From NCBI RefSeq assembly GCF_003334305.1, contig NZ_QOWS01000005.1: DNA of 64,000 bases; one strand, written 5' to 3'. The DNA comes from Escherichia coli. GTDB lineage: Bacteria > Pseudomonadota > Gammaproteobacteria > Enterobacterales > Enterobacteriaceae. Of the stretch, positions 29,291 through 45,927 are shown in pieces; position 1 is the first letter of the stretch, and every line of letters starts with the position of its first letter. The translations under genes and the position numbers were made by a program. The notes beneath the pieces were generated by a model that ran no database searches, had not been told where the DNA came from, and saw only the letters and a list, made by a program, of their open reading frames with translations.

Positions 29291-31669
29291 ATGTCCAACA
29301 ATGGCTCGTCACCGCTGGTGCTTTGGTATAACCAACTCGGCATGAATGATGTAGACAGGGTTGGGGGCAAAAATGCCTCCCTGGGTGAAATGATTACTAA
29401 CCTTTCCGGAATGGGTGTTTCCGTTCCGAATGGTTTCGCCACAACCGCCGACGCGTTTAACCAGTTTCTGGACCAAAGCGGCGTAAACCAGCGCATTTAT
29501 GAACTGCTGGATAAAACGGATATTGACGATGTTACCCAGCTTGCGAAAGCGGGCGCGCAAATCCGCCAGTGGATTATCGACACTCCCTTCCAGCCTGAGC
29601 TGGAAAACGCCATCCGCGAAGCCTATGCACAGCTTTCCGCCGATGACGAAAACGCCTCTTTTGCGGTGCGCTCCTCCGCCACCGCAGAAGATATGCCGGA
29701 CGCTTCCTTTGCCGGTCAGCAGGAAACCTTCCTCAACGTTCAGGGGTTTGACGCCGTTCTCGTGGCAGTGAAACATGTATTTGCTTCTCTGTTTAACGAT
29801 CGCGCCATCTCTTATCGTGTGCACCAGGGTTACGATCACCGTGGCGTGGCGCTCTCCGCCGGTGTTCAACGGATGGTGCGCTCTGACCTCGCATCATCTG
29901 GCGTTATGTTCTCCATTGATACCGAATCCGGCTTTGACCAGGTGGTGTTTATCACTTCCGCATGGGGCCTTGGGGAAATGGTCGTGCAGGGTGCGGTTAA
30001 CCCGGATGAGTTTTACGTCCATAAACCGACACTGGCGGCGAATCGCCCGGCTATCGTGCGCCGCACCATGGGGTCGAAAAAAATCCGCATGGTTTACGCG
30101 CCGACCCAGGAGCACGGCAAGCAGGTTAAAATCGAAGACGTACCGCAGGAACAGCGTGACATCTTCTCGCTGACCAACGAAGAAGTGCAGGAACTGGCAA
30201 AACAGGCCGTACAAATTGAGAAACACTACGGTCGCCCAATGGATATTGAGTGGGCGAAAGATGGCCACACCGGTAAACTGTTCATTGTGCAGGCGCGTCC
30301 GGAAACCGTGCGCTCACGCGGTCAGGTCATGGAGCGTTATACGCTGCATTCACAGGGTAAGATTATCGCCGAAGGCCGTGCTATCGGTCATCGCATCGGC
30401 GCGGGTCCGGTGAAAGTCATCCATGACATCAGCGAAATGAACCGCATCGAACCTGGCGACGTGCTGGTTACTGACATGACCGACCCGGACTGGGAACCGA
30501 TCATGAAGAAAGCATCTGCCATCGTCACCAACCGTGGCGGTCGTACCTGTCACGCGGCGATCATCGCTCGTGAACTGGGCATTCCGGCGGTAGTGGGCTG
30601 TGGAGATGCAACAGAACGGATGAAAGACGGTGAGAAAGTCACTGTTTCTTGTGCCGAAGGTGATACCGGTTACGTCTATGCGGAGTTGCTGGAATTTAGC
30701 GTGAAAAGCTCCAGCGTAGAAACGATGCCGGATCTGCCGTTGAAAGTGATGATGAACGTCGGTAACCCGGACCGTGCTTTCGACTTCGCCTGCCTGCCGA
30801 ACGAAGGCGTGGGCCTTGCGCGTCTGGAATTTATCATCAACCGTATGATTGGCGTCCACCCACGCGCACTGCTTGAGTTTGACGATCAGGAACCGCAGTT
30901 GCAAAACGAAATCCGCGAGATGATGAAAGGTTTTGATTCTCCGCGTGAATTTTACGTTGGTCGTCTGACTGAAGGGATCGCGACGCTGGGTGCCGCGTTT
31001 TATCCGAAGCGCGTCATTGTCCGTCTCTCTGATTTTAAATCGAACGAATATGCCAACCTGGTCGGTGGTGAGCGTTACGAGCCAGATGAAGAGAACCCGA
31101 TGCTCGGCTTCCGTGGCGCGGGCCGCTATGTTTCCGACAGCTTCCGCGACTGCTTCGCGCTGGAGTGTGAAGCAGTGAAACGAGTGCGCAACGACATGGG
31201 GCTGACCAACGTTGAGATCATGATCCCGTTCGTGCGTACCGTAGATCAGGCGAAAGCGGTGGTTGAAGAACTGGCGCGTCAGGGGCTGAAACGTGGCGAG
31301 AACGGGCTGAAAATCATCATGATGTGTGAAATTCCGTCCAACGCCTTGCTGGCAGAGCAGTTCCTCGAATATTTCGACGGCTTCTCAATTGGCTCAAACG
31401 ATATGACACAGCTGGCGCTCGGTCTGGATCGTGACTCCGGCGTGGTGTCTGAATTGTTCGATGAGCGCAACGATGCGGTGAAAGCATTGCTGTCGATGGC
31501 TATCCGTGCCGCGAAGAAACAGGGCAAATATGTCGGGATTTGCGGTCAGGGTCCGTCCGACCATGAAGACTTTGCCGCATGGTTGATGGAAGAGGGGATC
31601 GATAGCCTGTCTCTGAACCCGGACACCGTGGTGCAAACCTGGTTAAGCCTGGCTGAACTGAAGAAATAA
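29291..31669 (+). CDS. ppsA: Phosphoenolpyruvate synthase
   Basis: 792-aa [37 protein letters not shown]... recognised as PpsA. Confidence 0.97.
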
Positions 31670-31676
31670 AATAAAT

Positions 31677-31706
31677 CCCCGGCGGCGTTCAGTCGCCGGG
31701 TTTATG
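31677..31706. terminator. Hairpin terminator between convergent ppsA and fadK
   Basis: cccggcgg-cgttcagt-cgccggg stem followed by ttt. Confidence 0.6.
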
Positions 31707-31725
31707 TGATCCCCGAAGATGAAAC

Positions 31726-33426
31726 TTATTCAATCTCTTCACAGACATCCTGCGTTAATCGCCGCATAATATCTTTTCTTAACAAAAACTTTTGTATTTT
31801 ACCTGAGGCAGTGCGCGGTAGTTTTTCGATTACCACGATATGTTCAGGATATTTATATTTTGCGACCCGTTTACGGCTAAAAAAAGCCACCACCTCTTCC
31901 AGCGATAATGAATGATGCGGCGCTTTCAGCACGACATAAGCGCATGATCGTTCACCTAAACGTTCATCGGGCATTGCAACCACACAGGCATCGTGAATTT
32001 TAGGATGCTGCAATAAAATATCTTCCACTTCACGGCTGCTAATATTTTCGCCGCCGCGGACAATAATATCTTTTTTGCGTCCGGTAATTTTTATATAGCC
32101 AGCCTCATCCATACGGCAGAGATCGCCGCTGTAATACCAGCCTTCTTCATCCAGCGCACGGGCGGTTAATTCAGGTTCATCAAAATATCCCATAAACACA
32201 TTGGGGCCACGCGAGGCTTCTTCACCTTCGCAACCTGGCGGTAAGGTCTTGCGTGCGTCATCGACCACTTTAATCTCTACACCTGCGGCAGCGTAACCAT
32301 CGGTGTGCATAAAGCGCGACAAAGGATCATCGAGATTCACCACCGCATGCGGCGAACTTTCTGTGGAACCATAAACACTTAATAATTTAATGCCGAGCTG
32401 CTGGCATTCACGCGCCACTTTTTTGGGGATTGTGGTTCCGCCGCAAAGAAAGAAACGCAGCGCTGACAGGTCCGCGGGTTGTTTCTCTAGTACATTCAAA
32501 AGATCATAGACAAACGGCGTTGCGCCTAGCATACAGGTGCAACGCTGCTGCTCAAGCAGCGCGAGACACGCATCAGGAGTGAAAATATCTAACAACACGC
32601 TGCGAGCGCCAATTAAGAATGGTGCCGTTACGCCATGCAGAAAGCCCGTTGCGTGGCCGAGTGGCGCAGGCATCATAAAGACATCCTGCCAGGTCAGATT
32701 CAGCCGCGCGCAATAAGCCCGCTCACTGGCGAGAATATTGTTATGCGTTAGCATCACGCCCTTTGGCAGACCCTCGGTTCCGGAGGTAAACAGCACCGCA
32801 GCTAATTCATCGCCGTGGGTCGTTATCGCCGTGGTCAGTGGGGTATTGTCGGCGATAATCTGACTTAATGAGAGGGAAGAGGTGGCGGGAGCCAGTTTGT
32901 CCACGCCGACAATTTGTTGTAGTTGTGGAAGCTGATTTTGCAGCGGCAGGATTAAATCTACCGGGCGCGTTTGTTTAAACAACGTCGGTGCAAAGAACAT
33001 TTTTGCCTGACACTTATTGAGCACCCACACCAGTTCTGCTTCCCGCCAGGAAGGCAACAGCGGCACGGAAACCGCACCGATTTTCAGGCAGGCAAGATAG
33101 ATAACGGTAAATTCACACCAGCCAGGCAGTTGAAATGCGATGCGATCGCCTGATTCAATACCCTTCGCTAACATCCAGTTTGCCAGACAGCTCGCGGCGT
33201 GATCGAGCGCGCTATAGTTGTACGATGCACCATGATTATCGACCACGGCAATTTTGTCTGGCATCGCACGAGCGGTCTGCTGCCAGTAATCGGCCAGCGA
33301 AGCATCGCCCCATAGCCCTTGCTGACGATACGCCGCACGACGTTGTTCGTTGAACGTTAATGTCACTTTCATGTTGGACTCTCGAAACAGAACATCAGGC
33401 CCGAGATGCGGGCCTGTGGGATGCAT
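31726..33426 (-). CDS. fadK: Short-chain acyl-CoA synthetase (anaerobic)
   Basis: 566-aa AMP-binding-enzyme-family ORF recognised as YdiD/FadK; an alternative internal start at MKVTLTF is possible. Confidence 0.9.
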   Translation of the reverse strand: MHPTGPHLGPDVLFRESNMKVTLTFNEQRRAAYRQQGLWGDASLADYWQQTARAMPDKIAVVDNHGASYNYSALDHAASCLANWMLAKGIESGDRIAFQLPGWCEFTVIYLACLKIGAVSVPLLPSWREAELVWVLNKCQAKMFFAPTLFKQTRPVDLILPLQNQLPQLQQIVGVDKLAPATSSLSLSQIIADNTPLTTAITTHGDELAAVLFTSGTEGLPKGVMLTHNNILASERAYCARLNLTWQDVFMMPAPLGHATGFLHGVTAPFLIGARSVLLDIFTPDACLALLEQQRCTCMLGATPFVYDLLNVLEKQPADLSALRFFLCGGTTIPKKVARECQQLGIKLLSVYGSTESSPHAVVNLDDPLSRFMHTDGYAAAGVEIKVVDDARKTLPPGCEGEEASRGPNVFMGYFDEPELTARALDEEGWYYSGDLCRMDEAGYIKITGRKKDIIVRGGENISSREVEDILLQHPKIHDACVVAMPDERLGERSCAYVVLKAPHHSLSLEEVVAFFSRKRVAKYKYPEHIVVIEKLPRTASGKIQKFLLRKDIMRRLTQDVCEEIE

Positions 33427-33428
33427 GA

Positions 33429-33722
33429 TTAGCCGTAGCGAAAATCAATACCGAAGGTGCCTGCGGGATATTGCCACTGTTCGAGAATAGTGTTACCGCA
33501 CAGCACCCGACAGGTGCCGCACTCCAGACAACCGGCAGAATCAAAATGAATGTTGCCGGCGTCATCCTGCTTATAAAGTCCGGCAGGGCAGGCTTTCATT
33601 AATTTACGGAATTCATTGATATCGGGATTTGCCGCCAGAATGATATGCGGGTGGCCCTCATCAACATGGAATTTATTGACGCCTAATTTGATGTCGACGT
33701 TAACCGTAGCGTTCTGGCTCAT
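33429..33722 (-). CDS. ydiT: Ferredoxin-like protein (FixX homologue)
   Basis: 97-aa ORF with Cys cluster (CPAGLYKQD...CLECGTCRVLC). Confidence 0.9.
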   Translation of the reverse strand: MSQNATVNVDIKLGVNKFHVDEGHPHIILAANPDINEFRKLMKACPAGLYKQDDAGNIHFDSAGCLECGTCRVLCGNTILEQWQYPAGTFGIDFRYG

Positions 33723-35008
33723 AGCGCGGTTGCTCCCTTAATGCCATCTTTCAGCAAGTTGATCAGCCCAATTTTCTTCGCATGTCCCATGATCATTTTG
33801 CGTACCGGCTGGTTTGGTTTGCCGTCAATGGTGAACATCTCGTTCATGATGTCGGCGACCATTCGTGGGTATTGGCTAAACAGGCGCGGGTTTTCCATCA
33901 GCGCCGGGATCTTGCGGAAATGCTGCATATCGCGCATGACGCAGCTTTGTTCCAGCTCACGTTTGTATTGCGCCAGACTGCTGGCGGAGAAATCCTCGCG
34001 TTCTTTGGCGGCGATCACCGTTGTGGCGGCAGCCTGAGCCGATGCAATGGCTAAATCCATGCCACGAACTGTAAAACCCAAATTCAGGCAGAAGCCTGCG
34101 GCGTCACCAACGATCATCACGCCATCGTTAACCATCTGCGGCACCATTGCCAGACCGCCTTCTGGCACCATATGCCCGGAATATTCAAGCAGTTTGCCGC
34201 CGCTAATTAGTGGGCGAATGGCGGGGTGTTGTTTAAAATCTTCCAGCATTTGCGGCACGCTTTTTTGCGCATGGGCGATATCACCCAATCCACAAACCAG
34301 CCCCAAGGATATGGAATCCTTGTTGGTATAGAGAAATCCCCCGCCCATCAGGCCGTCAGAAGGGGAACCGGCAAACAGCCAGGCGGCACCTTCCTCGCCC
34401 GTAATATTAAAGCGATCGTTGATCTGTTCTGGTGTGAGGCCAATAACCTCTTTAACACCAACAGCGTAATGATGCGGATCGGAAGCGGGAACCATTCCCA
34501 GCGAGCGGCCAAGCATCGAGTTAACGCCATCAGCCAGAATCACCACATTCGCTTCGAGAATATCATCCCCAGCCTGCACGCCAGTGACCTTGTTTCCTTC
34601 ACGAACCAGCGCATCGACGCGAACGCCTGGGATAAACTGCGCGCCCGCCTGCTCGGCTTGTTCCATCAACCACGGGTCCAGACGATTACGCAATACGGTA
34701 TAAGATGCGTGTTGCGGAACATCTGGTTGCTCGCGGTGAAAATCGAGGGTAACGGCGCTTTCTTCGGTTAAGAAGGAGATTTTCTCGCGTGTGACCTTGC
34801 GTTCTACCGGCGCTGATACTGCAAAGCCTGGAATGATTGCTTCAAGTGTGTGGGCATAAAGACGCCCGCCGGTCATGTTTTTACATCCGGCACTGTCGCC
34901 GCGTTCTATCACCAGGACATCCAGCCCGGCTCGCGCCATGACCAGTGCGGCAACGCTACCAGCAACGCCCGCACCGACCACAATGGCATCAAATTTGTCT
35001 TCCGACAT
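33719..35008 (-). CDS. ydiS: FAD-dependent oxidoreductase (FixC homologue, ETF-QO-like)
   Basis: 429-aa ORF with N-terminal dinucleotide-binding motif (DAIVVGAGVAGSVAA); 4-nt overlap with ydiT. Confidence 0.9.
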   Translation of the reverse strand: MSEDKFDAIVVGAGVAGSVAALVMARAGLDVLVIERGDSAGCKNMTGGRLYAHTLEAIIPGFAVSAPVERKVTREKISFLTEESAVTLDFHREQPDVPQHASYTVLRNRLDPWLMEQAEQAGAQFIPGVRVDALVREGNKVTGVQAGDDILEANVVILADGVNSMLGRSLGMVPASDPHHYAVGVKEVIGLTPEQINDRFNITGEEGAAWLFAGSPSDGLMGGGFLYTNKDSISLGLVCGLGDIAHAQKSVPQMLEDFKQHPAIRPLISGGKLLEYSGHMVPEGGLAMVPQMVNDGVMIVGDAAGFCLNLGFTVRGMDLAIASAQAAATTVIAAKEREDFSASSLAQYKRELEQSCVMRDMQHFRKIPALMENPRLFSQYPRMVADIMNEMFTIDGKPNQPVRKMIMGHAKKIGLINLLKDGIKGATAL

Positions 35009-35063
35009 GCGTTATGCTCCCTTCCCGCTGCGTTTACAGCGGGAGATGTGGTTGAAAGGGGAA

Positions 35064-36002
35064 TTAGCGGCTCAACTGGCTAATCAGGGCAGGGACGACT
35101 TTGTAGATATCGCCCACCAGACCGTAGTCGGCATAATTGAAGATTGGCGCATTTTTATCTTTATTGATGGCGACAATCACTTTTGCGCCGTTGCCGCCAA
35201 CCATATGCTGGATCTGCCCGGAGATCCCCAGCGTCAGGTAGAGATCGGATTTCAGCAACACGCCGGAGACACCGATATAACGTTCACGCTCCATCCAGTT
35301 CTCGCCTTCGGCAATTGGACGTGAACAGCCGACTTCAGCATTCAGCACCGCCGCCAGTTCGTGGACCATTTTCAGGTCATCCTGCGCCGCCAGACCACGA
35401 CCGACGCCAACCACACGTTTTGCTTTGCTCAGGTCCACGCTGCTTGCGGCTTTCGCACGGCGTTCGCGACAGAGAATTTCATGACGCGGAGCAACATAAG
35501 GTACCGTTTCTGTCGGGCACTGATGAGAGGTATCACTGGTGCACGGTTCCTGAACACCGGGTGCAAGGGTAATGATCGCCAGCGGGCTGTTGATCTTTTC
35601 CTGAGCGAACGCTAACCCGCCATACATCCGGTGTTCGGCGCAAATGTGACCATCGATAATATCCACCGCCGTGGCATCGTTCACCAGCGCCGCATTCAGT
35701 TGCACACTTAACCGTGCTGCCAGAGCTTTACCACGTTTCGTCGCGGCCAACAGCAACATAGCGGGGTGTTTATCTTTCAGCAGGGCAGCAATGCTTTCGG
35801 CGTAATTTTCAGTGCGTTGCAGCGCGTCGTTTTGCTCAAGAACATAAATACATTTTGGACCATAAGGCATAACTGCCTGCGCCTGGTCGGTATTTTGTAC
35901 AATGGCATACACCTGTTGGCCCCATTGCTGAGCGCCGCCAAACAGTTCAGCATAACGTTCAGGATTATCGCTAAAGACCCAGACGCTGTTTAATTGACTC
36001 AT
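35064..36002 (-). CDS. ydiR: Electron transfer flavoprotein alpha subunit (FixB homologue)
   Basis: 312-aa ORF recognised as YdiR. Confidence 0.9.
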   Translation of the reverse strand: MSQLNSVWVFSDNPERYAELFGGAQQWGQQVYAIVQNTDQAQAVMPYGPKCIYVLEQNDALQRTENYAESIAALLKDKHPAMLLLAATKRGKALAARLSVQLNAALVNDATAVDIIDGHICAEHRMYGGLAFAQEKINSPLAIITLAPGVQEPCTSDTSHQCPTETVPYVAPRHEILCRERRAKAASSVDLSKAKRVVGVGRGLAAQDDLKMVHELAAVLNAEVGCSRPIAEGENWMERERYIGVSGVLLKSDLYLTLGISGQIQHMVGGNGAKVIVAINKDKNAPIFNYADYGLVGDIYKVVPALISQLSR

Positions 36003-36021
36003 CGTTTCTTCTCCGTAGGCT

Positions 36022-36786
36022 TCAGTTCAGGGCTTTCTTCAGATGTTCCGCCAGCTCGGCAATGGCCTCCGGCGAATCGTTATCGATAATGATGTGCTTA
36101 CGTTCTGTTTGCGGCGGTACGCGAATGCCGACCAGTTCAGCAAGTGGCGCGCTCTGGCTCCAGTCAATATCACTTGCCTGCCACTGATTTACCGGTTTTT
36201 TACCCGCGCCGAGAATGGCTTTCATCGAAGGAATGCGTGGCACGTTAATATCGGAGGTGACGCAGAGCACGGCTGGAACAGAGAGTTCAATAACTTCAAC
36301 ATCATCTTCAAGCGTGCGTTCAATCACCAGTGTATTGCCCTGACGCTGAATAGCACTCACTGCATTAATCACCGGAAGTTGCAGAATTTCTCCGACCAGC
36401 AAGCCAGCCTGCTGGGCATAAAGGTCGCCGGAACCTTCACCAAAGATCAGTAAATCGAAGCCGATCTTTTCAACTGCTGCTGCCAGCGCTTTTGCGGTAT
36501 CGAGAGGCAGTGCATGTTCAAGTTGCGCATCCTGCACCAAATACAGGCTGTGCGGCCCGCGGGATAGCACGTCTTTGCGCACTTTCGAGTTCTGCAACAA
36601 TGAGCCGCCAACGGTCAGCGCGGCTATCTCATCGTCATCTGTTGCAAGCTGGCTTGCAGCTTCAATGGCATTGAGATCGAACTGGCTGATTTTGGCGTCG
36701 GCATTGTCGAAATTCAGGGTGTATTCTGGAGTGACAACAATGTCCTGTTCTTCAGGCACCAGCTTAAAGCAGGTTATTATTTTCAT
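36022..36786 (-). CDS. ydiQ: Electron transfer flavoprotein beta subunit (FixA homologue)
   Basis: 254-aa product from MKIITCFKLVPEEQDIVV...; the track ORF (287 aa) extends upstream without support. Confidence 0.88.
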   Translation of the reverse strand: MKIITCFKLVPEEQDIVVTPEYTLNFDNADAKISQFDLNAIEAASQLATDDDEIAALTVGGSLLQNSKVRKDVLSRGPHSLYLVQDAQLEHALPLDTAKALAAAVEKIGFDLLIFGEGSGDLYAQQAGLLVGEILQLPVINAVSAIQRQGNTLVIERTLEDDVEVIELSVPAVLCVTSDINVPRIPSMKAILGAGKKPVNQWQASDIDWSQSAPLAELVGIRVPPQTERKHIIIDNDSPEAIAELAEHLKKALN

Positions 36787-37101
36787 GATTTCTCCTGTGA
36801 GTCGCATACGGAACCATCTCCGATGGAAGGTAAAAATGGCCTGAAAATAGTGTGCGATAGCGGTGCGGGGTTTTCGACGGAGCAAGCTGTTTTCCTTGCC
36901 AACAATCTTGCAAAAAAAATGCGATCGCTAAAACAAAAGTGCAATTTGCGGCAATATAGTTATTCCATGACCGTACAATCTTGCATTCAGTGTAAATAAT
37001 CTTGTTTAGCTCTCGCTAAACGCGGTTGTATAACCGCAATACACGCCGTATTTTATCCGGCATATATTGTTTTTGCTTGCTCATGGAATAGGGAGGTTGT
37101 C

Positions 37102-38013
37102 ATGTATCAACGCTGTTTTGATAATGCCAGTGAAACGCTGTTTGTCGCCGGTAAAACGCCACGGCTTTCACGTTTTGCAATTAGCGATGATCCAAAATGG
37201 GAGTCTGGACATCACGTTCATGACAATGAAACCGAGCTGATTTACGTCAAGAAAGGGGTAGCAAGGTTTACCATCGATTCATCGTTATATGTCGCACATG
37301 CCGATGATATAGTGGTGATAGAACGCGGCAGGCTGCATGCGGTGGCCTCTGACGTTAACGATCCGGCAACGACGTGTACCTGTGCGCTGTACGGCTTTCA
37401 GTTTCAGGGGGCTGAGGAAAATCAGCTACTGCAACCGCATTCTTGTCCGGTAATTGCCGCGGGGCAGGGAAAAGAAGTCATAAAAACCTTATTTAATGAG
37501 CTAAGTGTGATTTTGCCGCAAAGTAAAAATAGCCAAACATCTTCGTTATGGGATGCATTTGCCTATACGTTAGCCATTCTTTACTACGAAAACTTTAAAA
37601 ATGCTTATCGTTCGGAGCAGGGGTATATTAAAAAAGATGTTCTGATAAAAGATATTCTTTTTTATCTGAATAATAATTATCGCGAAAAAATCACTTTAGA
37701 ACAGTTATCGAAAAAATTTCGTGCCAGCGTCAGTTATATTTGCCATGAATTTACCAAAGAGTATCGTATTTCCCCTATTAACTATGTTATTCAACGGCGT
37801 ATGACGGAAGCGAAATGGTCACTCACTAATACTGAATTATCACAGGCAGAGATCTCCTGGCGTGTGGGTTATGAAAATGTCGATCACTTTGCCAAACTGT
37901 TTTTGCGCCATGTCGGTTGTTCGCCCAGCGATTACCGCAGGCAATTTAAAAACTGTTTTGCGGAACAAGAAATCCTATCTGAATTTCCTCAACCGGTAAG
38001 TCTTGCCGGGTAA
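37102..38013 (+). CDS. ydiP: AraC-family transcriptional regulator
   Basis: 303-aa ORF with C-terminal AraC-type HTH; divergent from the ydiQRST-fadK cluster. Confidence 0.88.
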   Translation: MYQRCFDNASETLFVAGKTPRLSRFAISDDPKWESGHHVHDNETELIYVKKGVARFTIDSSLYVAHADDIVVIERGRLHAVASDVNDPATTCTCALYGFQFQGAEENQLLQPHSCPVIAAGQGKEVIKTLFNELSVILPQSKNSQTSSLWDAFAYTLAILYYENFKNAYRSEQGYIKKDVLIKDILFYLNNNYREKITLEQLSKKFRASVSYICHEFTKEYRISPINYVIQRRMTEAKWSLTNTELSQAEISWRVGYENVDHFAKLFLRHVGCSPSDYRRQFKNCFAEQEILSEFPQPVSLAG

Positions 38014-38055
38014 ATCTGGCGGCGCAGTTTGTTAAGAAGCTGCGCCGCCTGCAGA

Positions 38056-39207
38056 TTATTTGTTCTGATAATCTTTCAGGATCTGCCGACCCGCAACGTA
38101 AATCATAATTTCGTCTGTACCGCCGCCGATACGTTCACAACGGACATCACGCCAGAAGCGGGAGACGCGCGCCTCATCGGTATAGCCCAGACCGCCCATG
38201 ATTTGAATCGCATCATCAATGACTTCCATTGCGGTACGTGCACAGTACAGTTTTGCCAGCGCCGCGCTGGTGCGCAGTGACTGATGCTGATCGGCTTGCC
38301 ATGCCACTTTCAGCACCATGTTGCGCATGTTGTCGATCTTAATCGCCATCAGCGCCAGTTTTTCCTGGATCATCTGGTTATGACCAATGGGCTTACCAAA
38401 AGCGATACGTTGGTTGGCATAGCGGGCGGCATCTTCAAAGGCGCATTCGGCAAAGCCGGTGCTGCGCGCGGCGTTGATCAGGCGCTCCATCTCAAAGTTG
38501 TACATCACATTGAGGAAACCCATTCCTTCTTCGCCCACCATGTCGCTCTCTTCAACCTCCACGTTGTCGAGATAGACTTCGCAGGTGCTGAGCATATGCC
38601 AGCCGATTTTATGCAGCGGGTTAATCTTAATGCCGGGCTTACTGGAGTCGACCCACCACAGGGTGAAGGCTTTTTTGGGATCTTTCGGTTGCGGATCGCG
38701 CGCCAGCACCAGCATATACGGGTACTCTTTCGCACCGGTAATAAAGGTTTTTTGTCCGTTGATGTAGACCTTGCCGTTTTTACGCGTGTAAGTGGTAGTG
38801 GCACTGTTGTTATCTGAGCCAGCACCTGGTTCCGTCAACGCCAGGGCATAGGCGGGATCACCCGTTTCCAGGGTGCTCTCTGCCGTTTTACGTAGCTGCT
38901 CTGCAGAACCGAAACGGCGCATACTGTGAATACATTGACCGTTGGTAATTAAAAATGCCGGAGCACCGCATTTTGACACTTCCATCAGCGCCAGCATTTG
39001 GGTGACGTAATCCGCAGGGATACCACCAAATTCTTCCGGCACGCCAAGCATGGAAATACCGTTATCCGCCAGCGCCCGCATAAACTCACGCGGATATGTC
39101 CCGTTTTGATCGCAGGTGCGGAAATACTCTTCCGGAAAGTTAGTCGTAATCAGTTCGCGAATACTGGCCAGCAGCAGTTCTTGTTCTTCAGTTAAAGAAA
39201 AATCCAT
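38056..39207 (-). CDS. ydiO: Acyl-CoA dehydrogenase family protein
   Basis: 383-aa product from MDFSLTEEQELLLASIREL...; AGGAG Shine-Dalgarno upstream. Confidence 0.9.
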   Translation of the reverse strand: MDFSLTEEQELLLASIRELITTNFPEEYFRTCDQNGTYPREFMRALADNGISMLGVPEEFGGIPADYVTQMLALMEVSKCGAPAFLITNGQCIHSMRRFGSAEQLRKTAESTLETGDPAYALALTEPGAGSDNNSATTTYTRKNGKVYINGQKTFITGAKEYPYMLVLARDPQPKDPKKAFTLWWVDSSKPGIKINPLHKIGWHMLSTCEVYLDNVEVEESDMVGEEGMGFLNVMYNFEMERLINAARSTGFAECAFEDAARYANQRIAFGKPIGHNQMIQEKLALMAIKIDNMRNMVLKVAWQADQHQSLRTSAALAKLYCARTAMEVIDDAIQIMGGLGYTDEARVSRFWRDVRCERIGGGTDEIMIYVAGRQILKDYQNK

Positions 39208-39220
39208 CATTATACTCCTG

Positions 39221-40816
39221 TTAATGAGCCGCTTCAGGCAGGACAAAACCCATCGCCGCATCGATAAATAATCTTTCGTTCATCAGTTTGAGTTCTGGCG
39301 AAATCACTGGGGTGAAGTCCATTTTGTCGAGAATATCTTTTTGTAAATCGACGCCAGGGGCGATTTCGATTAAATGCAGGCCGTCTTCTTTCAGCGTGAA
39401 TACAGCACGTTCGGTGATGTAACGAACATCCAGTCCCCGTTCGAGCGCGATTTTTCCGCTAAAAGTAATTTCCGGTAGTTCCCGAATAAATTTATTTACC
39501 CGTCCTTCCTGGACGATATGCAATTTGCCATCGGCAATTTCTGTTTTTAAACTGCCCGCAGTTAACGTGCCGCAGAAAATAATTTTCTTCGAGGTGGCAC
39601 TGATATCAATAAATCCACCGGTACCCATGATTTTGCCATTGAATTTATGCACGCCGACGTTACCGTGCTGGTCGACTTCAGCAAAACTCAAATAACAAAC
39701 ATCCAGACCACCACCGTGATAAAAATCAAACTGGGACGTCATATCCAGAATGGCGCGGGTATTCACGTTCGCGCCAAAGGCGATACCCTGTGAAGTAATT
39801 CCGCCAATCGGACCTGTTTCTACCGTCAGAATAAAGTCATCAGCACAACCTTCTTCCCGGGCGACCAGGCCAATACCGTCAGCAATACCGACGCCGACAT
39901 TCCCCACCGCGCCTTTACGCATTTCGAATAATGCACGCCGCGCAACTAATTTACGTTGGTTTAGGGGCAGGCTAAGTTTGGTGCTGTCATCAAGGGTGAA
40001 GTCACCAGAAATAAAACGGTTAACCGGCGCACCGCCATACAGTTGGCTTTGATCCGGATCGACCACCACAATATCCACCAGATAACCCGGAATACGGACA
40101 GATTTAGGATGCAGCGTGGCTTTCTTAACCATTTTCTGCACCTGCATCATCACAATACCGCCGTTATTGTGCACCGCCTGGGCAATAACCAATGCGTCGA
40201 GATACATCACCTCATCTTCAAAAGTGGCGTAGCCTTCACTGTCGCAGGTGGTAGCGCGAATGAAGGCGATATCTGGCGCAATCGCTTTGTAATAGAGATA
40301 TTCTTTGTTATCAAACTCGACCAGTTTAATCAGGTCTTCTTTCGTGACTTCATTCAGTTTGCCGCCTTGCTGGCGTGGATCGACAAATGTCCCGATGCCA
40401 ATATCACTAATAATACCAGGCTGGTGGGCTGCGGCGGCGCGTAAGGTTTGTGTAAGTACACCTTGTGGATAGTTATAAGCAATAATTTTATTTTGTTCTG
40501 CGAGTTCAGAAATACGCGGCGATTGTCCCCAGTGACCACATAATGCCCATTTCACCAGACCTTCTTGCGCCAGAGGACTAATACCACGGTCGGCGCGATC
40601 GCCAAGCCCTGTCGGACTAATAATCGATAAATTACGTGGCGTTTGAGTCTGTTTATATTTATCAGCAAGAGCTGTAATTAACGTGGTGGCTTCCAGAATA
40701 CCGCCGCCAGCGCCTAACACACAAAGTGTTGCTTCGTCGGGAATATAATTCACCGCTTCCTGTGCCGACAGGACCGGCACTCGTCCATTAATACGAGGTG
40801 GTTTTACAGGTTTCAT
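39221..40816 (-). CDS. ydiF: Fused acyl-CoA:acetate CoA-transferase (alpha/beta subunits)
   Basis: 531-aa ORF recognised as YdiF. Confidence 0.9.
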   Translation of the reverse strand: MKPVKPPRINGRVPVLSAQEAVNYIPDEATLCVLGAGGGILEATTLITALADKYKQTQTPRNLSIISPTGLGDRADRGISPLAQEGLVKWALCGHWGQSPRISELAEQNKIIAYNYPQGVLTQTLRAAAAHQPGIISDIGIGTFVDPRQQGGKLNEVTKEDLIKLVEFDNKEYLYYKAIAPDIAFIRATTCDSEGYATFEDEVMYLDALVIAQAVHNNGGIVMMQVQKMVKKATLHPKSVRIPGYLVDIVVVDPDQSQLYGGAPVNRFISGDFTLDDSTKLSLPLNQRKLVARRALFEMRKGAVGNVGVGIADGIGLVAREEGCADDFILTVETGPIGGITSQGIAFGANVNTRAILDMTSQFDFYHGGGLDVCYLSFAEVDQHGNVGVHKFNGKIMGTGGFIDISATSKKIIFCGTLTAGSLKTEIADGKLHIVQEGRVNKFIRELPEITFSGKIALERGLDVRYITERAVFTLKEDGLHLIEIAPGVDLQKDILDKMDFTPVISPELKLMNERLFIDAAMGFVLPEAAH

Positions 40817-40959
40817 TGTTAATTCCTGATTCAGATGTGATTTTCCCTACGCCAGATGGAGAATTAGCGCACAGAGACTCACGAAATATTTTTATTAAAT
40901 ACGGTTAAATATATTTTTTAAGTTCGGCGGGGAGGGTGTTCCCGCCGAAATATTATTGC

Positions 40960-41718
40960 TTATGCCTGGTGTAAAATAGTTAATACCGTGCGTAAATCAT
41001 TTACCGAGATTTGCCCTGGTGCAGAGGCTTTTTTTACCGCACCAAAAGTTGCCGCCGAGCCAAATACTTCACCAGCCAGACGAGAAATTACGCCAGTTTT
41101 TGCCATCGACATCGTGATGATTGGACGATCGGCATACTGCTCCTGCATCTCCAGGGTCGCGGTAAGCAACGTCAGCACATCGCTGGTACTTTGCGGCATC
41201 AGCGCAATCTTAGGAATATCGGCGTCGAAGGACTGCATTTTGCGCAGACGGGCAATGATTTCTTCGGCTTCCGGCGTTTTATGGAAGTCATGGTTGGACA
41301 TGACAACTTTCACATCATGCGCGTGGGCGTAGGCGACGGTTTCTTTAACCTGATCATCGCCGGTAAATAACTCCAGATCGATCATATCAACCAGGCCGCT
41401 GTCGATGGCTGCACGATTGAGAGCAATATAAGCCTCGGTGGAAATCGCCTGCTCGCCGCCTTCTTTGGCACTGCGGAAGGTAAACAGCAGCGGTTTTTCT
41501 GGCATGGTTTCACGGAGAATTTTTGCCGCCGCCATGACAGACTCCACATTGGAGAGGTCGGCAAAGTGGTCCACACGCCATTCCAGAATATCAAAGTCCG
41601 CTTCACGATAGGCGAGAGCTTCGGATTTCACGCGGGCGATATCTTTCGCCATCAGCGAGACGATGATTTTAGGTGCGCCCGTACCAATGACGAGATCTTT
41701 TACAGTTACGGTTTTCAT
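40960..41718 (-). CDS. aroD: 3-dehydroquinate dehydratase (type I)
   Basis: 252-aa [40 protein letters not shown]... recognised as AroD. Confidence 0.96.
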
Positions 41719-41748
41719 TTTTTACCCTTTCTGCACGCGGTCAGCCTG

Positions 41749-42615
41749 TCAGGCACCGAACCCCATGACCTGTTTAACATATTCCAGAGGGAAATCTTTG
41801 CCAGTCCATAACGTGAACTGTTCAGCCCCTTGCCACAACAACATGCCGTATCCATCAATCGTTTTGCAACCAGCTTGTTGCGCCTGCTGCAATAACTTCG
41901 TCATATGCGGGTTATACACGCATTCAGTGACCAGCAGTCCCGGATGTAACAGACTGATATCATTAACTAATGATTCATTCTCAAGGGGTTTCATACCCAC
42001 TTTTGTGCCATTGGTTAAAATGTCGGCGGAAGCCAGGGCTTCAGCAAAGGCTTGCTGATCGGCGAGATCGGTAACCGTGACGACACAATCGGTGTTTTCG
42101 TTAACCCGCTGCGCGAAGGCGAGGGCTTTATCGAAGAACTCATCCCGACGGTTAAAGAGTTTAATTTCTTTTAAACCTTCAATTGCCCCCTGCGCGCCAA
42201 TCGCCGTTGAGGCACCTCCGGCCCCTAACAGCACCATTGTTTTGCCTTTGATATCAAAACCGCTCTCTTTAATGGCGCGAATATGGCCCGTGCCGTCGGT
42301 GTTATAGCCGCGCAGGTAGCCATCATCATTAACGATGGTGTTGATGGCACCCACCAGTTTGGCTGCTGGCGTTAATTCATCAACATATTCACACGCCAGT
42401 TGTTTGTTCGGCATTGATATACCAGTTCCGCGCATTTTGAGGGCTTTTAATCCTTCAATTGCTCCGGGAAAACTATCGTTATCCACTTCAAAGGCCATAT
42501 AGGTAAATGGCAATCCCGCTTTTTCTAAGGCTTTATTCTGCATTTCAGGCGATAAACTGTGGCGGATAGGATAGGCCATCAGCCCAATCAATTCGTATTT
42601 TGCGGTAACATCCAT
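41749..42615 (-). CDS. ydiB: Quinate/shikimate dehydrogenase
   Basis: 288-aa [38 protein letters not shown]... recognised as YdiB. Confidence 0.95.
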
Positions 42616-42626
42616 AATTAACTCCT

Positions 42627-43892
42627 TTAACCTCTATGCTTAATTGTGTTTAACCGGGTGCTAAATTTACGCTCGCCAAACCGCACATCATTCTCAGGAA
42701 TAATAAAAACGCGGTAATAGCGGATAAAAACAATAATTGCGGTAATCAGGGCCAGCAGCGCGAAAGTAAAATCGAGAACAATGATATATTGAAGGCCGAT
42801 GTTCGACAGATAACCGGTAATCAGCGGAATAACAAAGTTAGCCAGTCCACCCATCATCATATAAATACTGGTGACTTTGGCTTTGCTTTTTGGGAAAAAC
42901 TCTGACATGACCGAAACACCGAGCTGTAAAATGCCGCCAGCTGCTGAGAAACCGATAACAAAGGCGCCGGCATTACACACCAGTGGAGAAGGGTACAGGT
43001 AGATAATGGCTGCTGTTATTGTTGCCAGTGCAGAGTTAAATACATTAGCCCAGATGGGCCGGACCATTTTTTTCAGTAGTGCGGCAAAAATAAAGACACA
43101 GACCAACGAGCCCATACTGTAATAAGAGATGGTTTTTAATGCCTCAGCTTCTGACATACCAGCAAAAGCCATCGCATATTTGGGCATCCACACCACAATC
43201 ACATAAAAGGTCGAGAATGCGGCTACACCGAACAGTACCGATGAAACACCTTCCAGCCAGACTAACGGTTTGCTGTTCATTTGCGGTAATTCATTAGCTA
43301 CGCTGGCGTCCACCAACTGGCTGGGGAATTTGCTTTTCAACAGCATCAGCGTGATCAGTACAAACAGAATACCCGGAATAATCAGCCCATAGCCGTACCA
43401 GATATTATTGAGCAACATATAGCTCACCAGCATTGGGTAGAACATTTGCCCAAATGACACCATCGCTTTAACCAGTATGACCGCCGAACCAGAGGCTTTC
43501 GGAAAGCATTCCATGAGCGCGGGGTAGCCACCCGTATCCAGCGCTGAGTTAGCGATACCTACGCACACTGCCAGACCGTAGGCGAGAGTTAAATTCGGGC
43601 AAGCGGGAATACCAAAGAAGAATAGCAGATACATTATTACTGCCATTAATATCACCGCCCGACGACCAAACTTATCGGAGATCACACCGAAGAATAAAAT
43701 ACTGATCAATCGCCCCAAACCAATACCGGAAATTAAGTAGGCAATGCCCGCGTTGTCAGTGGAAAACTTTTCCGCCAGAGATGACATGTTTTGGGCAAGC
43801 GTAATAACACTAATGCCGTGCAGGAAGTAGCTGAAGTAAATACAAAGAACAGCCAGGATAAATGGCGTGCTGAAAGCCTTATTTTGAGACAT
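42627..43892 (-). CDS. ydiN: MFS transporter
   Basis: About 421-aa 12-TM ORF recognised as YdiN; start chosen at the second Met. Confidence 0.88.
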
Positions 43893-44118
43893 TTTCACAG
43901 CTCCTTGCTGAAAGATAATTTCGTTACCGTACGTATTGTTCTTCGACGGTTTACATAATTACTATACTGAAGATGATTTTCCCTGGGTACATGGCATAAA
44001 GTTTATGTTTCCAGGAATATTGCATGTCATAGTTTGTTTTTGATCGCGATTTTCCTTAGTTAGCGCAGAAAGAGTTATTTATCCGTAAGATCTTGCATGA
44101 CCTGAAAAGAATATTGCA

Positions 44119-45333
44119 TTACCCACCCGGAGCAACATTTTCCTTTAGCGAGTGATGCCGCGTTTTTTTGCGGCTGCGTAAGCCGATAAACAGTGCCAGT
44201 AAAAAACCGATGGCAGCGATGGCGGTATCGAACCACATAATATCGGCAATACTTCTTTGGGACAGATGAGCCGTAATCAACGGAATAGTAAAGGTCGCAA
44301 TACTGCCCGCACTGTAATAGATCCCTGTAGCTTTACCTTTAGCGTAAGGGAAACGTTCAGCCATTAACGTCAGGCCAATTTGCACAACACCTCCAGCAGA
44401 GGTAAAACCAATGACAAAAGCAAATATTATCACCACATAAAATGTGGGATGCAGGCAGACGGTAAACAGAGCAATAAATGAGATAAAGGTGTACAGCATC
44501 AGTAATGTTGTTGGGCGAACGGTATTACGAATGAGTGGAGCGGTAATAAATACACAAAGCAGCGAACCCACGGTGTAGATACTGAGTAGTTTAATCGACA
44601 TAGTGTATGACATGCCTGCAACAAATTGTCCGTACTGTGCCAGCCACTGGCTAACCAGATAAAACGTTGCCATTGAGATATAGCCATATAAGGTATAACT
44701 GGCTAAATCGATAATTGAACAGCGATGTTCCGTAGAGCTGGTGGTTTTCTTTATGACAGGTAAGCGATGACCCGGATGGGGTGGGAACGTACAACGGTAT
44801 AAAAACAGAGCGTTAATAAACATAATGCCTGCAGCAATCATAAAGGACCAACCGAACCACAGTTCAGCCCACACTAACAGGCTAATGATTAGCGGTAATA
44901 AAAATTGTCCGCTGGAAACAAATGCTTTAATTAAAATATTGGCTGTCCCAGGTGAGCGTGGAAAAGCTTCCATCAAACTGGGATAAGTGCCTGCATCGAG
45001 AAAACTGTTTGCCATTCCTGCCAGAAAGCCAAAAACATAAGCGATAATGATGTTATTGGTGTGCAGGATGCCAAAAAAGAAGGCCATATAGCAGCACATC
45101 CCGAGCATGATAAAAGGGCGGCGACCAAAGCGATCGGATAATAATCCTGCAAAAAGCAAGACACTTAATCGACCAATGCCCAGCGATGAGATAACTATCG
45201 AGACACCCGCGGCATTAGTCTGCCAAAGTGTCTCCAGCGAGGCCATATTCAGGCTCATCAAAATGACGCCCATACCATGCACCAGGTAATTAAAATACAA
45301 CCCAAGTGCGGTAGGGTAATAGGGATTTTTCAT
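44119..45333 (-). CDS. ydiM: MFS transporter
   Basis: 404-aa polytopic ORF recognised as YdiM. Confidence 0.88.
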   Translation of the reverse strand: MKNPYYPTALGLYFNYLVHGMGVILMSLNMASLETLWQTNAAGVSIVISSLGIGRLSVLLFAGLLSDRFGRRPFIMLGMCCYMAFFFGILHTNNIIIAYVFGFLAGMANSFLDAGTYPSLMEAFPRSPGTANILIKAFVSSGQFLLPLIISLLVWAELWFGWSFMIAAGIMFINALFLYRCTFPPHPGHRLPVIKKTTSSTEHRCSIIDLASYTLYGYISMATFYLVSQWLAQYGQFVAGMSYTMSIKLLSIYTVGSLLCVFITAPLIRNTVRPTTLLMLYTFISFIALFTVCLHPTFYVVIIFAFVIGFTSAGGVVQIGLTLMAERFPYAKGKATGIYYSAGSIATFTIPLITAHLSQRSIADIMWFDTAIAAIGFLLALFIGLRSRKKTRHHSLKENVAPGG

Positions 45334-45432
45334 AGGTTCTACTTAGCAAAGGTGCTTTAAAAAGTGTAGCGATGTTGTGTCAGTATCCATTCATTATTGT
45401 TGTAACAACGACAATTCCTTTCTGTGGAAAAA

Positions 45433-45789
45433 TTAACAAAGCCGCTCCAGATCGTGTGCATATAATTCAGCGGCTACCGATTGATAGATCTTCCAGTCAA
45501 TAAAATTGCCATCAGGGTAGACTCGTTGAAATGCGGTTAAGTCGGGGAAAAAACGCATGGTGTTGTTGCCGATGCGGTTATTTATTTTCTCTATGATGGC
45601 ATGAAGATGTTTTTTTCTTTGCTGACGCATAGCCAACAGTTGCTCGACTACACGCTCAGGAATGGCACACTTGCCATTTTCCCACTGACGCCAGCTTTCA
45701 CTGTCACCGGTCTGGGCAATCCAGGTCGCGCATTCATCAATAGTCATGGCAAAAATATGGCGGAGTGCCTGGAGTTCATAAGCGTTCAT
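45433..45789 (-). CDS. ydiL: Uncharacterized protein YdiL
   Basis: 118-aa product from MNAYELQALRHIFAMTIDECATW...; the track ORF extends 9 codons upstream. Confidence 0.8.
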   Translation of the reverse strand: MNAYELQALRHIFAMTIDECATWIAQTGDSESWRQWENGKCAIPERVVEQLLAMRQQRKKHLHAIIEKINNRIGNNTMRFFPDLTAFQRVYPDGNFIDWKIYQSVAAELYAHDLERLC

Positions 45790-45927
45790 CGTGTAATGGC
45801 TGCATGAAATAAACAATAAAATATAAATAACATTATCAGCCTGCTGACGGCTTGAAGAGAGTCACAGTATCTTGTGCAACATTATTGGAAAGAGTGAGGG
45901 GCGAGGTAGCGAAGCGGAAAAATGTTA

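Follow-up and report, generated by a model that had tools for sequence, protein, structure and literature searches.

Positions 31726-40816 of a 64,000-nucleotide stretch of Escherichia coli DNA (contig NZ_QOWS01000005.1; hereafter the window, whose coordinates are used throughout) hold the genes fadK-ydiTSRQ, ydiP and ydiO-ydiF, which encode an acyl-coenzyme A (acyl-CoA) synthetase, an electron-transfer flavoprotein (ETF) module, an AraC-family regulator, an acyl-CoA dehydrogenase-like protein and a CoA-transferase. We found that these genes are conserved together with the quinate/shikimate genes lying beyond ydiF, and the whole unit, ydiN-ydiB-aroD-ydiF-ydiO, ydiP and ydiQRST-fadK (~31726-44119), would appear to be under common control, given a predicted operator shared by the ydiQ and ydiN promoters. 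On the basis of this gene content, we tentatively propose that the unit may encode a CoA loop in the cytoplasm that reduces the enoate group of hydroaromatic acids, organised along the lines of the carnitine (caiTABCDE plus fixABCX) and caffeate (carABCDE) systems. The locus itself is already known, and the hypothesis that its substrate is shikimate or 3-dehydroshikimate, with quinate feeding in, appears to be new; what is added here is the extended conserved unit with the quinate/shikimate genes, the predicted operator common to both promoters and a substrate hypothesis that is specific and testable.

Eight long open reading frames (ORFs) were listed between 31726, the final base of the fadK stop codon, and 40816, the first base of the ydiF start codon, seven of them on the minus strand and one on the plus strand. 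The names fadK, ydiT, ydiS, ydiR, ydiQ, ydiP, ydiO and ydiF were taken from the RefSeq annotation of an identical strain, which also places aroD, ydiB, ydiN and ydiM beyond ydiF, and ppsA on the fadK side. Megablast of positions 31000-41500 returned several E. coli chromosomes with 100% identity over 10,501 bases; the region was matched in 5426 of the 5426 complete E. coli genomes, with a query coverage of at least 80% in 5349. The stretch is an already catalogued E. coli core-genome locus. Among the NCBIfam models, those for medium-chain fatty-acid-CoA ligase, FixC-like FAD oxidoreductase, ETF alpha, ETF beta and acyl-CoA dehydrogenase were passed at their own cut-offs, while YdiT and YdiF scored under the cut-off of their best models, FixX and the staphylococcal FadX, respectively. 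Second-best models were FixA, FixB and FixC for YdiQ, YdiR and YdiS, and crotonobetainyl-CoA dehydrogenase for YdiO. ORFs, RefSeq and NCBIfam thus confirmed an earlier note, made from the letters of this DNA alone, as regards the eight genes, their identities and their strands, with ydiP on the plus strand between two minus-strand groups.

Conserved neighbourhood of the ydi genes

A scan for YdiO, restricted to one genome per species, yielded 45 loci, onto which all the E. coli neighbours were mapped (here and below, loci and contigs are labelled L0xx where a label is needed). Wherever the flanks were long enough, we found the block ydiM-like, ydiN, ydiB, aroD, ydiF, ydiO, ydiP (on the opposite strand), ydiQ, ydiR, ydiS, ydiT and fadK, in Escherichia, Citrobacter, Kosakonia, Intestinirhabdus, Yersinia, Brenneria, Dickeya, Serratia, Prodigiosinella and Symbiopectobacterium; ydiP was syntenic in all the Enterobacterales loci. 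Two Sutterella species (Betaproteobacteria) carried ydiTSRQ divergent from ydiN-ydiB-aroD-ydiF-ydiO, with a YdiO 80-84% identical to that of E. coli, a YdiB that passed the YdiB equivalog NCBIfam model (520 bits) and a dehydroquinase of type I. The metagenome contig L055 (GC 0.42) encoded, in one operon, a major facilitator superfamily (MFS) transporter, YdiF, YdiO (83%), EtfB, EtfA, a shikimate dehydrogenase 77% identical to YdiB, dehydroquinase I, FixC and FixX, accompanied by a divergent AraC gene whose product was 45% identical to YdiP. A second contig, L054 (GC 0.43), encoded an MFS transporter, YdiF, YdiO (77%), EtfB, EtfA, dehydroquinase I, FixC, FixX and a ligase. The ydiF gene adjoined ydiO in all the loci, including those of Sutterella and the metagenome contigs, and fadK was absent from the Sutterella and L055 versions.

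The unit was therefore found in four different gene orders with the same membership, and in two of them the hydroaromatic genes lay inside the electron-transfer module, as illustrated by L054 and L055, where the dehydroquinase I gene stands between etfA and fixC. Shuffled orders that keep their membership are hard to explain unless the quinate/shikimate enzymes and the YdiF-YdiO-ETF proteins work together. The earlier note had presented the genes up to 40816 as a complete unit, a boundary that proved too narrow since the conserved unit also takes in ydiN, ydiB and aroD; similarly, ydiO and ydiF, which it set apart as a separate group, belong with the upstream ydiN-ydiB-aroD genes and are not a standalone pair.

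More distant YdiO relatives (63-68% identity) were found in sibling modules, in Desulfovibrio and as a second copy in E. albertii, and these modules contain no shikimate genes, so the hydroaromatic link is limited to YdiO orthologues of at least about 77% identity. Judged by gene content, the YdiO-module family is modular and the ydi type is its hydroaromatic-linked member. The sibling modules (L053 in E. albertii; L051 and L052 in Desulfovibrio desulfuricans) encode a family III CoA-transferase, an MFS transporter, a second acyl-CoA dehydrogenase and ETF beta and alpha, to which an AraC-type regulator is added in E. albertii, and FixC and FixX, a metallo-beta-lactamase-fold protein and a ligase in Desulfovibrio.

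Two of the loci showed peculiarities of their own. In Enterobacter sp. EA-1 (L047, CP025776.1) the ydiP match at 11195-12085 was spread over three reading frames and several cluster proteins had unusually low identity, so that this cluster looks like one decaying into pseudogenes. In Sutterella wadsworthensis (L039, 11219-12355) two ORFs of 163 and 211 aa with no NCBIfam match lie directly downstream of ydiO and could be lineage-specific parts of the cluster.

A predicted operator shared by the ydiQ and ydiN promoters

Alignment of the ydiP-ydiQ spacer from 13 genomes revealed two conserved blocks besides the ydiP ribosome-binding site. The distal block is a pair of WRCAAKAT direct repeats, AACAAGATTATTT and TGCAAGAT, separated by 8 bases, so that the half-sites are 21 bp apart; the proximal one is a site of ~39 bp, TGCAAGATTGTTGGCAAGGAAAACAGCTTGCTCCGTCGA. 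Because earlier pattern searches had been circular, their consensus patterns having come from both promoters, matrices were built from the ydiQ-upstream sites only and scanned over the 64-kb window, and leave-one-out matrices were run on the ~21-kb locus of each genome. In the window, the best non-self hits of both matrices fell in the ydiM-ydiN spacer, where the proximal site (43986-44024) scored 18.2 bits, as compared to 5.7 for the runner-up, and the distal site (44086-44119) 27.9 bits, as compared to 9.5. The offset from distal to proximal site was 94 bp at both E. coli promoters. With the leave-one-out matrices, the region upstream of ydiN was the second-best proximal hit in 13 of the 13 genomes (11.7-35.6 bits, against no more than 4.9 for the third) and the second-best distal hit in 12 of them. 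The 21-bp repeat pair was also present beside the YdiP homologue of L055 and in the Sutterella ydiQ-ydiN spacer; in Sutterella, no ydiP gene was found within the 21 kb around the cluster. The distal ydiN operator abuts the ydiM stop codon.

AraC/XylS proteins typically bind direct repeats two helical turns apart. YdiP combines a cupin domain (Pfam Cupin_2/AraC_binding, residues 29-144) with a double helix-turn-helix (HTH_18, residues 202-281), and the predicted sites consist of direct repeats ~21 bp apart, the arrangement expected of AraC/XylS operators next to a -35 region. YdiP is thus the probable regulator binding the predicted operators, and likely an activator. Synteny and the shared operator suggest two co-regulated transcription units, ydiN-ydiB-aroD-ydiF-ydiO and ydiQRST-fadK, the former of which would entail co-transcription of aroD with ydiF. 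A peak of FlhDC in genomic SELEX (systematic evolution of ligands by exponential enrichment) has been located inside ydiP, between ydiO and ydiQ, at K-12 position ~1,776,868 (PMC9962212).

The YdiQRST electron-transfer module

Comparison with the cai/fix and ygc loci of strain K-12 supported the description of the module as paralogous and fixABCX-like. YdiQ was 56% identical to FixA and 23% to YgcR, YdiR 44% to FixB and 25% to YgcQ, YdiS 61% to FixC and 42% to YgcN, and YdiT 62% to FixX and 42% to YgcO; YdiO was 48% identical to CaiA over its full length, and no paralogue of it occurred in the ygc locus as fetched. The order Q-R-S-T matches that of fixA-B-C-X, and fixC and fixX share the 4-base overlap of ydiS and ydiT. 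The module thus consists of adjacent EtfB, EtfA, FixC and FixX genes, the same four subunits that make up the bifurcating FixABCX of Azotobacter vinelandii and EtfABCX of Thermotoga maritima (7KOE). YdiS matched T. maritima FixC (7koe_C) at 8.7e-70 and pig ETF-quinone oxidoreductase (ETF-QO) at 3e-24, in line with its having been described as ETF-QO-like, and YdiT matched T. maritima EtfX (7koe_D) at 2e-14.

The earlier note had also called the unit electron-bifurcating in style, and this we could not support. In 216 bifurcating ETFs the EtfB loop at the second FAD has the sequence D-G-D-T-A-Q, in which Thr is invariant (100%) and Gly nearly so (95%), and in 449 canonical ETFs the same loop, at the AMP site, reads D-D-D-x-N-Q (PMC8958531). 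YdiQ has D-L-Y-A-Q-Q at this motif, in the same register in three high-confidence phmmer alignments with structurally characterised bifurcating proteins, CarD (6FAH), LctB (7QH2) and Clostridioides difficile EtfB (5OL2). E. coli FixA has the same six residues, which likewise depart from the canonical motif (DNDMNA in Paracoccus, DDDCNQ in human). A HMMER search for YdiQ relatives among 1.84 billion representatives retrieved 4249, and in the 95 full-length proteins aligned from the best 150 of these, nearly all showed G-[ED]-G-S-x-D-x-[YF]-x-x-Q and only one the bifurcating signature. From these alignments, YdiQ and E. coli FixA fall in a separate large ETF-beta clade with a third class of motif, G-[ED]-G-S-x-D-x-Y-x-Q-Q in the case of YdiQ, neither bifurcating nor canonical. 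Two distant members of the clade also adjoin acyl-CoA dehydrogenases. The 'ADTxAT' region of EtfB, considered as a second bifurcation signature, was dropped since it varies inside the YdiQ clade.

The remaining subunits pointed in the same direction. YdiR (312 aa) has no N-terminal ferredoxin domain. YdiT keeps only C45-P plus C65xxC68xxC71xxxC75 and lacks three of the cysteines of the first cluster motif seen in T. maritima EtfX, which has two full motifs. No ferredoxin or flavodoxin gene besides ydiT was present in the 22.5-kb annotated locus. In contrast to FixABCX of A. vinelandii and EtfABCX of T. maritima, the ydi ETF has an acyl-CoA dehydrogenase as its partner and no link to nitrogenase or ferredoxin. 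Absence of DGDTAQ, of a ferredoxin domain in YdiR, of a second motif in YdiT and of another ferredoxin or flavodoxin nearby leaves bifurcation unsupported. E. coli FixX (L002, 11464-11751) and YgcO (L003, 5920-6180) resemble YdiT in having one CxxCxxCxxxC motif and a lone C-P, and the three proteins probably bind a single [4Fe-4S] cluster each.

YdiO, YdiF and FadK

YdiO scored 787 bits with NF008997 and, according to the Pfam record of an identical cluster protein, consists of the domains PF02771, PF02770 and PF00441, as fits the acyl-CoA dehydrogenase superfamily. In both YdiO and CaiA, GGGTDE (YdiO ~361-363 = GGG) replaces YEGTxE, so that the catalytic Glu of the medium-chain acyl-CoA dehydrogenase (MCAD) type is gone, and a Glu241-Arg242 pair occupies the position of the catalytic base of isovaleryl-CoA dehydrogenase (IVD) and long-chain acyl-CoA dehydrogenase (LCAD). 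The two alternative positions of the catalytic Glu are well established for acyl-CoA dehydrogenases, and the relocated layout is tied to bulky or branched, not straight-chain, substrates. YdiO can thus be placed in the CaiA family of acyl-CoA dehydrogenases, by analogy with which it would act as a reductase. Across enterobacterial genera it is unusually well conserved, with 91-97% identity; YdiO of E. coli and that of Yersinia share 92-93%, as compared to ~65% for YdiP.

YdiF, a family I CoA-transferase, is identical to the protein of PDB entries 2AHU, 2AHV and 2AHW, and its similarity to CaiB was undetectable. FadK scored 1086 bits with NF004758 (cut-off 736), its second-best model being cyclohexanecarboxylate-CoA ligase, below the cut-off of that model, and was 29% identical to CaiC. 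E. coli has both ydiF and fadK, which may act on one substrate as a CoA-transferase plus ligase pair; Sutterella and L055 lack the ligase.

Comparison with known systems

The carnitine system caiTABCDE/caiF/fixABCX offers the closest parallel, and we suggest by analogy that the two can be equated role for role: YdiN would stand for CaiT as transporter, YdiB plus AroD for CaiD in forming the enoate by dehydration, FadK for CaiC as priming ligase, YdiF for CaiB as CoA-recycling transferase, YdiO for CaiA as enoyl-CoA reductase, YdiQRST for FixABCX as electron supply and YdiP for CaiF as activator. FixA also shares the non-bifurcating motif of YdiQ, and aroD, ydiN and ydiP, which would provide the enoate-forming dehydratase, the transporter and the dedicated regulator, would belong to one regulon according to synteny and the predicted operator. 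The systems differ in that YdiF is of family I and CaiB of family III; AroD dehydrates a free acid, after oxidation by YdiB, whereas CaiD acts on the CoA ester; YdiN is an MFS transporter and CaiT one of the betaine/choline/carnitine transporter (BCCT) family; YdiP is of the AraC and not the CaiF type; and the predicted substrate is a hydroaromatic acid instead of a betaine. Moreover, the cai and fix operons are divergent neighbours, whereas the ydi regulator gene lies between its two operons.

The caffeate system CarABCDE of Acetobacterium woodii likewise combines a CoA-transferase, an ATP-dependent ligase, an enoyl-CoA reductase of acyl-CoA dehydrogenase type and EtfAB, and reduces a plant-derived alpha,beta-unsaturated acid as electron acceptor, as we predict for the ydi system. 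CarD was the best PDB hit of YdiQ (5e-22), and CarC matched YdiO at 2e-45. However, CarDE is a true bifurcating ETF with DGDTAQ and a ferredoxin domain and without FixCX, whereas the ydi ETF is tied to a quinone-linked FixC/FixX pair.

Two further systems concern shikimate itself. The pathway from shikimate to cyclohexanecarboxyl-CoA in Streptomyces collinus and Alicyclobacillus processes CoA thioesters and reduces ring double bonds by enoyl-CoA reductions; unlike the ydi system, it serves biosynthesis, draws on NADPH-dependent reductases and involves neither an ETF nor FixCX. When Eggerthella lenta and Sutterella wadsworthensis respire shikimate (Little et al., bioRxiv 2022.12.26.521950), the enoate is converted to hydro-shikimate with a growth benefit, which is the reaction predicted here, but the candidate enzymes of that study, one of them found by induction, are respiratory fumarate-reductase-like flavin reductases acting on the free acid, and a CoA-dependent route was not considered.

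A proposed CoA loop for hydroaromatic acids

Both shikimate and 3-dehydroshikimate belong to the cyclohex-1-ene-1-carboxylates and hence to the alpha,beta-unsaturated acids. In the proposed loop, YdiN would import quinate or shikimate, and YdiB and AroD would convert quinate via 3-dehydroquinate to 3-dehydroshikimate and shikimate, in which the ring C1=C2 double bond is conjugated to the carboxylate. FadK would then make the first CoA thioester as an ATP-dependent primer, and YdiF would recycle the CoA from product to fresh substrate. YdiO would reduce the double bond of the resulting enoyl-CoA (the shikimate or 3-dehydroshikimate ester) with electrons passing from (mena)quinol through YdiS (FAD) and YdiT ([4Fe-4S]) to YdiQR, acting as a single-electron ETF, in a linear chain free of bifurcation; dihydroshikimate would be released as the product. 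YdiP may sense the substrate and activate both promoters through the WRCAAKAT direct repeats. Menaquinol (~-74 mV) can reduce enoyl-CoA (~-10 mV) without bifurcation, and these potentials fit with a non-bifurcating ETF.

It is conceivable, and we put it forward with due reserve, that a YdiP-controlled 'hydroaromatic respiration', in which quinol electrons travel through a non-bifurcating ETF/FixCX chain, operates in E. coli, other Enterobacterales and gut Sutterella. S. wadsworthensis grows better with formate plus shikimate and turns the enoate into hydro-shikimate, a conversion to which no Sutterella enzyme has been assigned (bioRxiv 2022.12.26.521950), and this species carries the ydiN-ydiB-aroD-ydiF-ydiO plus ydiQRST cluster. 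In a shikimate-accumulating E. coli strain ydiB, aroD and ydiN were up-regulated, and in another shikimate producer ydiQ, ydiR, ydiS and ydiT were among the most up-regulated genes. In extraintestinal Salmonella serovars ydiFO, ydiQRST and ydiP are degraded, a loss which fits a gut-specific function. That the physiological substrate is not firmly established, as the earlier note had put it, agrees with a 2022 review, which calls YdiQR 'of unknown function', with 'experimental evidence lacking'.

Several considerations weigh against the hydroaromatic loop. No experiment ties YdiF, YdiO or FadK to shikimate, quinate or 3-dehydroshikimate, and we found no paper linking ydiF, ydiO or ydiQRST functionally with shikimate in a search that left most subscription journals outside. 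Sequence does not reveal which way the electrons flow, and a YdiO relative of 74% identity stands alone, with no partner genes. YdiF was reportedly crystallised, by Rangarajan in 2005, as a short-chain acyl-CoA:acetate transferase, and a 2022 genetic-interaction study, whose abstract names ydiP, is said to have linked this gene with cold-shock adaptation. Since aroD is also the essential biosynthetic dehydroquinase of E. coli, its linkage could partly reflect housekeeping. The expression changes were recorded in engineered strains in stationary phase. In addition, shikimate induces a different reductase in E. lenta (bioRxiv 2022.12.26.521950), and the shikimate phenotype of Sutterella could equally stem from its many flavin reductases. 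Finally, activity of FadK has been measured with C6-C8 fatty acids, and a mutant lacking both fadD and fadK is unable to use fatty acids (2022 review).

Alternative functions

The FadK data lead to the function to which the genes have usually been assigned, anaerobic beta-oxidation of short- and medium-chain fatty acids (Campbell, Morgan-Kiss and Cronan 2003). Under this scheme, FadK, which was most active on C6-C8 in vitro, would activate the acid and YdiO dehydrogenate it, YdiQR plus YdiST would deliver the electrons to quinone and from there to nitrate or another acceptor, and FadIJ would complete the cycle. The Salmonella literature groups ydiFO, ydiQRST and fadHIJK under this pathway, and the topology from ETF to ETF-QO is that of the classical oxidative route. 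We nevertheless consider it unlikely. Neither the locus nor any orthologous cluster contains a gene for a hydratase, a hydroxyacyl-CoA dehydrogenase or a thiolase; the partners conserved across lineages are the quinate/shikimate enzymes and not fad genes; the Sutterella and L055 versions do without fadK; and the catalytic layout of YdiO is of the CaiA/IVD type instead of that of the straight-chain MCAD or short-chain acyl-CoA dehydrogenase (SCAD). Besides the lack of evidence for YdiQR, the 2022 review points out that fadK is not induced anaerobically in transcriptomes and is not under FadR/CRP control, and doubts that FadK has an anaerobic role.

The same gene content as in the hydroaromatic loop could also serve an oxidative salvage, in which dihydroshikimate or related cyclohexane carboxylates from gut microbes would be imported, esterified with CoA and desaturated by YdiO, with the electrons passing to ETF, YdiST and quinone, and YdiB and AroD would hand the product on to aromatic amino-acid synthesis or central metabolism. 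An ETF/ETF-QO chain is reversible in principle, and aroD and ydiB join the biosynthetic shikimate pathway directly. The closest characterised relative, CaiA with FixABCX, however, acts reductively, the cluster-bearing Sutterella consumes shikimate and excretes hydro-shikimate, and quinate needs no acyl-CoA dehydrogenase to enter the shikimate pathway, all of which makes salvage quite improbable in our opinion.

A bifurcating or confurcating complex of the FixABCX type, also assumed in models of reversed beta-oxidation, in which YdiQR would oxidise NADH at a second FAD and send the electrons partly to YdiO or quinone and partly to a low-potential ferredoxin or flavodoxin, would suit the EtfB-EtfA-FixC-FixX architecture and the fact that YdiQ and YdiR find their best PDB hits among bifurcating ETFs (for instance CarD, LctB and the C. 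difficile ETF), but can be set aside as highly improbable given the absence of the invariant Thr from YdiQ and of the signature from all but one of its 95 aligned neighbours, the incomplete cluster motifs of YdiT, the lack of another ferredoxin or flavodoxin gene in the locus, and a 2026 review according to which deletion or over-expression of YdiO barely altered butyrate formation by reversed beta-oxidation, the reduction being done by FabI.

Implications of the hydroaromatic reading

The E. coli 'y-ome' has a long-standing example in the ydi genes, which have been assigned to anaerobic and reversed beta-oxidation, and built into metabolic models, on thin evidence. Should the hydroaromatic loop prove true, it would add a new anaerobic electron acceptor to the gut physiology of E. 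coli and Salmonella and join the carnitine and caffeate systems as the third electron sink of the CoA-loop kind. It would provide a function for ~10 poorly understood genes (ydiN, ydiB, ydiF, ydiO, ydiP, ydiQRST and fadK), explain why E. coli keeps a second shikimate dehydrogenase and why ydi genes are lost in extraintestinal Salmonella, allow metabolic models to be corrected, and supply a candidate enzyme system for the shikimate respiration of Sutterella. The picture suggested is one in which plant acids (quinate and shikimate) serve as electron sink in the anoxic gut, and not one in which fatty acids are burned. Even if the substrate hypothesis is wrong, the shared predicted operator and the extended synteny redefine the regulon that has to be explained.

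Gene starts, spacers and local hairpins

Coordinates of the genes and predicted operators are collected in Table 1. The conserved start of fadK is at 33372, giving 548 aa, and not the ATG at 33426; the 566-aa ORF starting there is unsupported, because its 18 additional residues are unconserved and in-frame stops occur at that place in other genera. The start of ydiO at 39207 (383 aa) aligns with Met1 of CaiA.

Tightly packed gene ends, indicative of co-translation, had been claimed for the locus, and this held in part. The spacers are -4 nt for ydiS/ydiT, 13 nt for ydiF/ydiO and 19 nt for ydiQ/ydiR, but they reach 55 nt for ydiR/ydiS and 56 nt for ydiT/fadK. The 4-base ATGA overlap argues for translational coupling of ydiS and ydiT only, and co-translation cannot be claimed for the other genes. 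Scans for consensus promoters and terminators returned no more sites than in shuffled sequence, and for this reason were not used to define operons.

Two hairpins were noticed in the spacers. The 56-nt ydiT-fadK spacer (33373-33428) contains, within the unconserved extension of the long fadK ORF, a GC-rich stem-loop with an 8-bp stem, CAGGCCCGCATCTCGGGCCTG, at 33396-33416 on the minus strand, which could be an element of mRNA processing, stability or attenuation separating the expression of fadK from that of ydiQRST. Just past aroD, at 40923-40949, lies a hairpin with an 11-bp stem, TTCGGCGGGGA...TCCCCGCCGAA, lacking a T-run in the direction of transcription, which could act as a weak terminator or as a stabiliser; apart from this hairpin, the 143-bp aroD-ydiF spacer is poorly conserved across genera.

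Table 1 Genes and predicted regulatory sites of the ydi unit, in coordinates of the 64-kb window.
Feature	Position	Strand	Evidence
fadK, acyl-CoA synthetase, 548 aa	31726-33372	-	NCBIfam NF004758, RefSeq
ydiT, FixX-like ferredoxin, 97 aa	33429-33722	-	FixX similarity, T. maritima EtfX match
ydiS, FixC / ETF-quinone-oxidoreductase-like flavoprotein, 429 aa	33719-35008	-	NCBIfam, FixC, 7koe_C
ydiR, ETF alpha subunit, 312 aa	35064-36002	-	NCBIfam, FixB similarity
ydiQ, ETF beta subunit, 254 aa, motif GEGSGDLYAQQAG	36022-36786	-	NCBIfam, motif alignments
Predicted proximal operator of the ydiQ promoter, TGCAAGATTGTTGGCAAGGAAAACAGCTTGCTCCGTCGA	36874-36912	-	Conserved in 13 genomes; near-identical copy upstream of ydiN
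Predicted distal operator, ydiP-ydiQ divergent region, two WRCAAKAT half-sites 21 bp apart	36974-37007	-	Alignment, matrices
ydiP, AraC-family regulator, presumed operator binder	37102-38013	+	Pfam, synteny
ydiO, CaiA-like acyl-CoA dehydrogenase/reductase, 383 aa	38056-39207	-	NF008997, CaiA similarity
ydiF, family I CoA-transferase, 531 aa	39221-40816	-	Identical to PDB 2AHU/2AHV/2AHW
aroD, type I 3-dehydroquinate dehydratase, beyond the span first noted	40960-41718	-	RefSeq, co-clustering
ydiB, NAD(P)-dependent quinate/shikimate dehydrogenase, beyond the span first noted	41749-42615	-	RefSeq, synteny
ydiN, MFS transporter, leads the ydiN-ydiB-aroD-ydiF-ydiO run	42627-43892	-	RefSeq, synteny
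Predicted proximal operator of the ydiN promoter, TGCAATATTCCTGGAAACATAAACTTTATGCCATGTACC	43986-44024	-	Matrix scan
Predicted distal operator of the ydiN promoter, two half-sites 21 bp apart	44086-44119	-	Matrix scan

Other observations on the locus and its flanks

In the megablast of 31000-41500, the median number of places matched per genome was 2, with 5 places on plasmids, indicating that a short stretch of the query is repeated elsewhere. E. coli strain E69 (L048, CP089930.1) matched only the first 71 residues of YdiO, and tblastn mapped only ydiF and ppsA, an apparent natural deletion reaching from within ydiO through fadK; this strain probably belongs to the 77 complete E. coli genomes covering less than 80% of the region.

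The ydiM gene (44119-45333), located upstream of ydiN in nearly all the Enterobacterales loci, encodes an MFS paralogue of YdiN with ~37% identity. The title of a paper on ydiM reportedly ties it to the production of active bo3 quinol oxidase. An Rfam scan of 31000-46500 detected only the small RNA RprA, and thus no riboswitch or leader RNA that would account for the long ydiP-ydiQ spacer; RprA itself (45925-46032, minus strand, 118.5 bits) maps past ydiM and ydiL and has no relation to the cluster.

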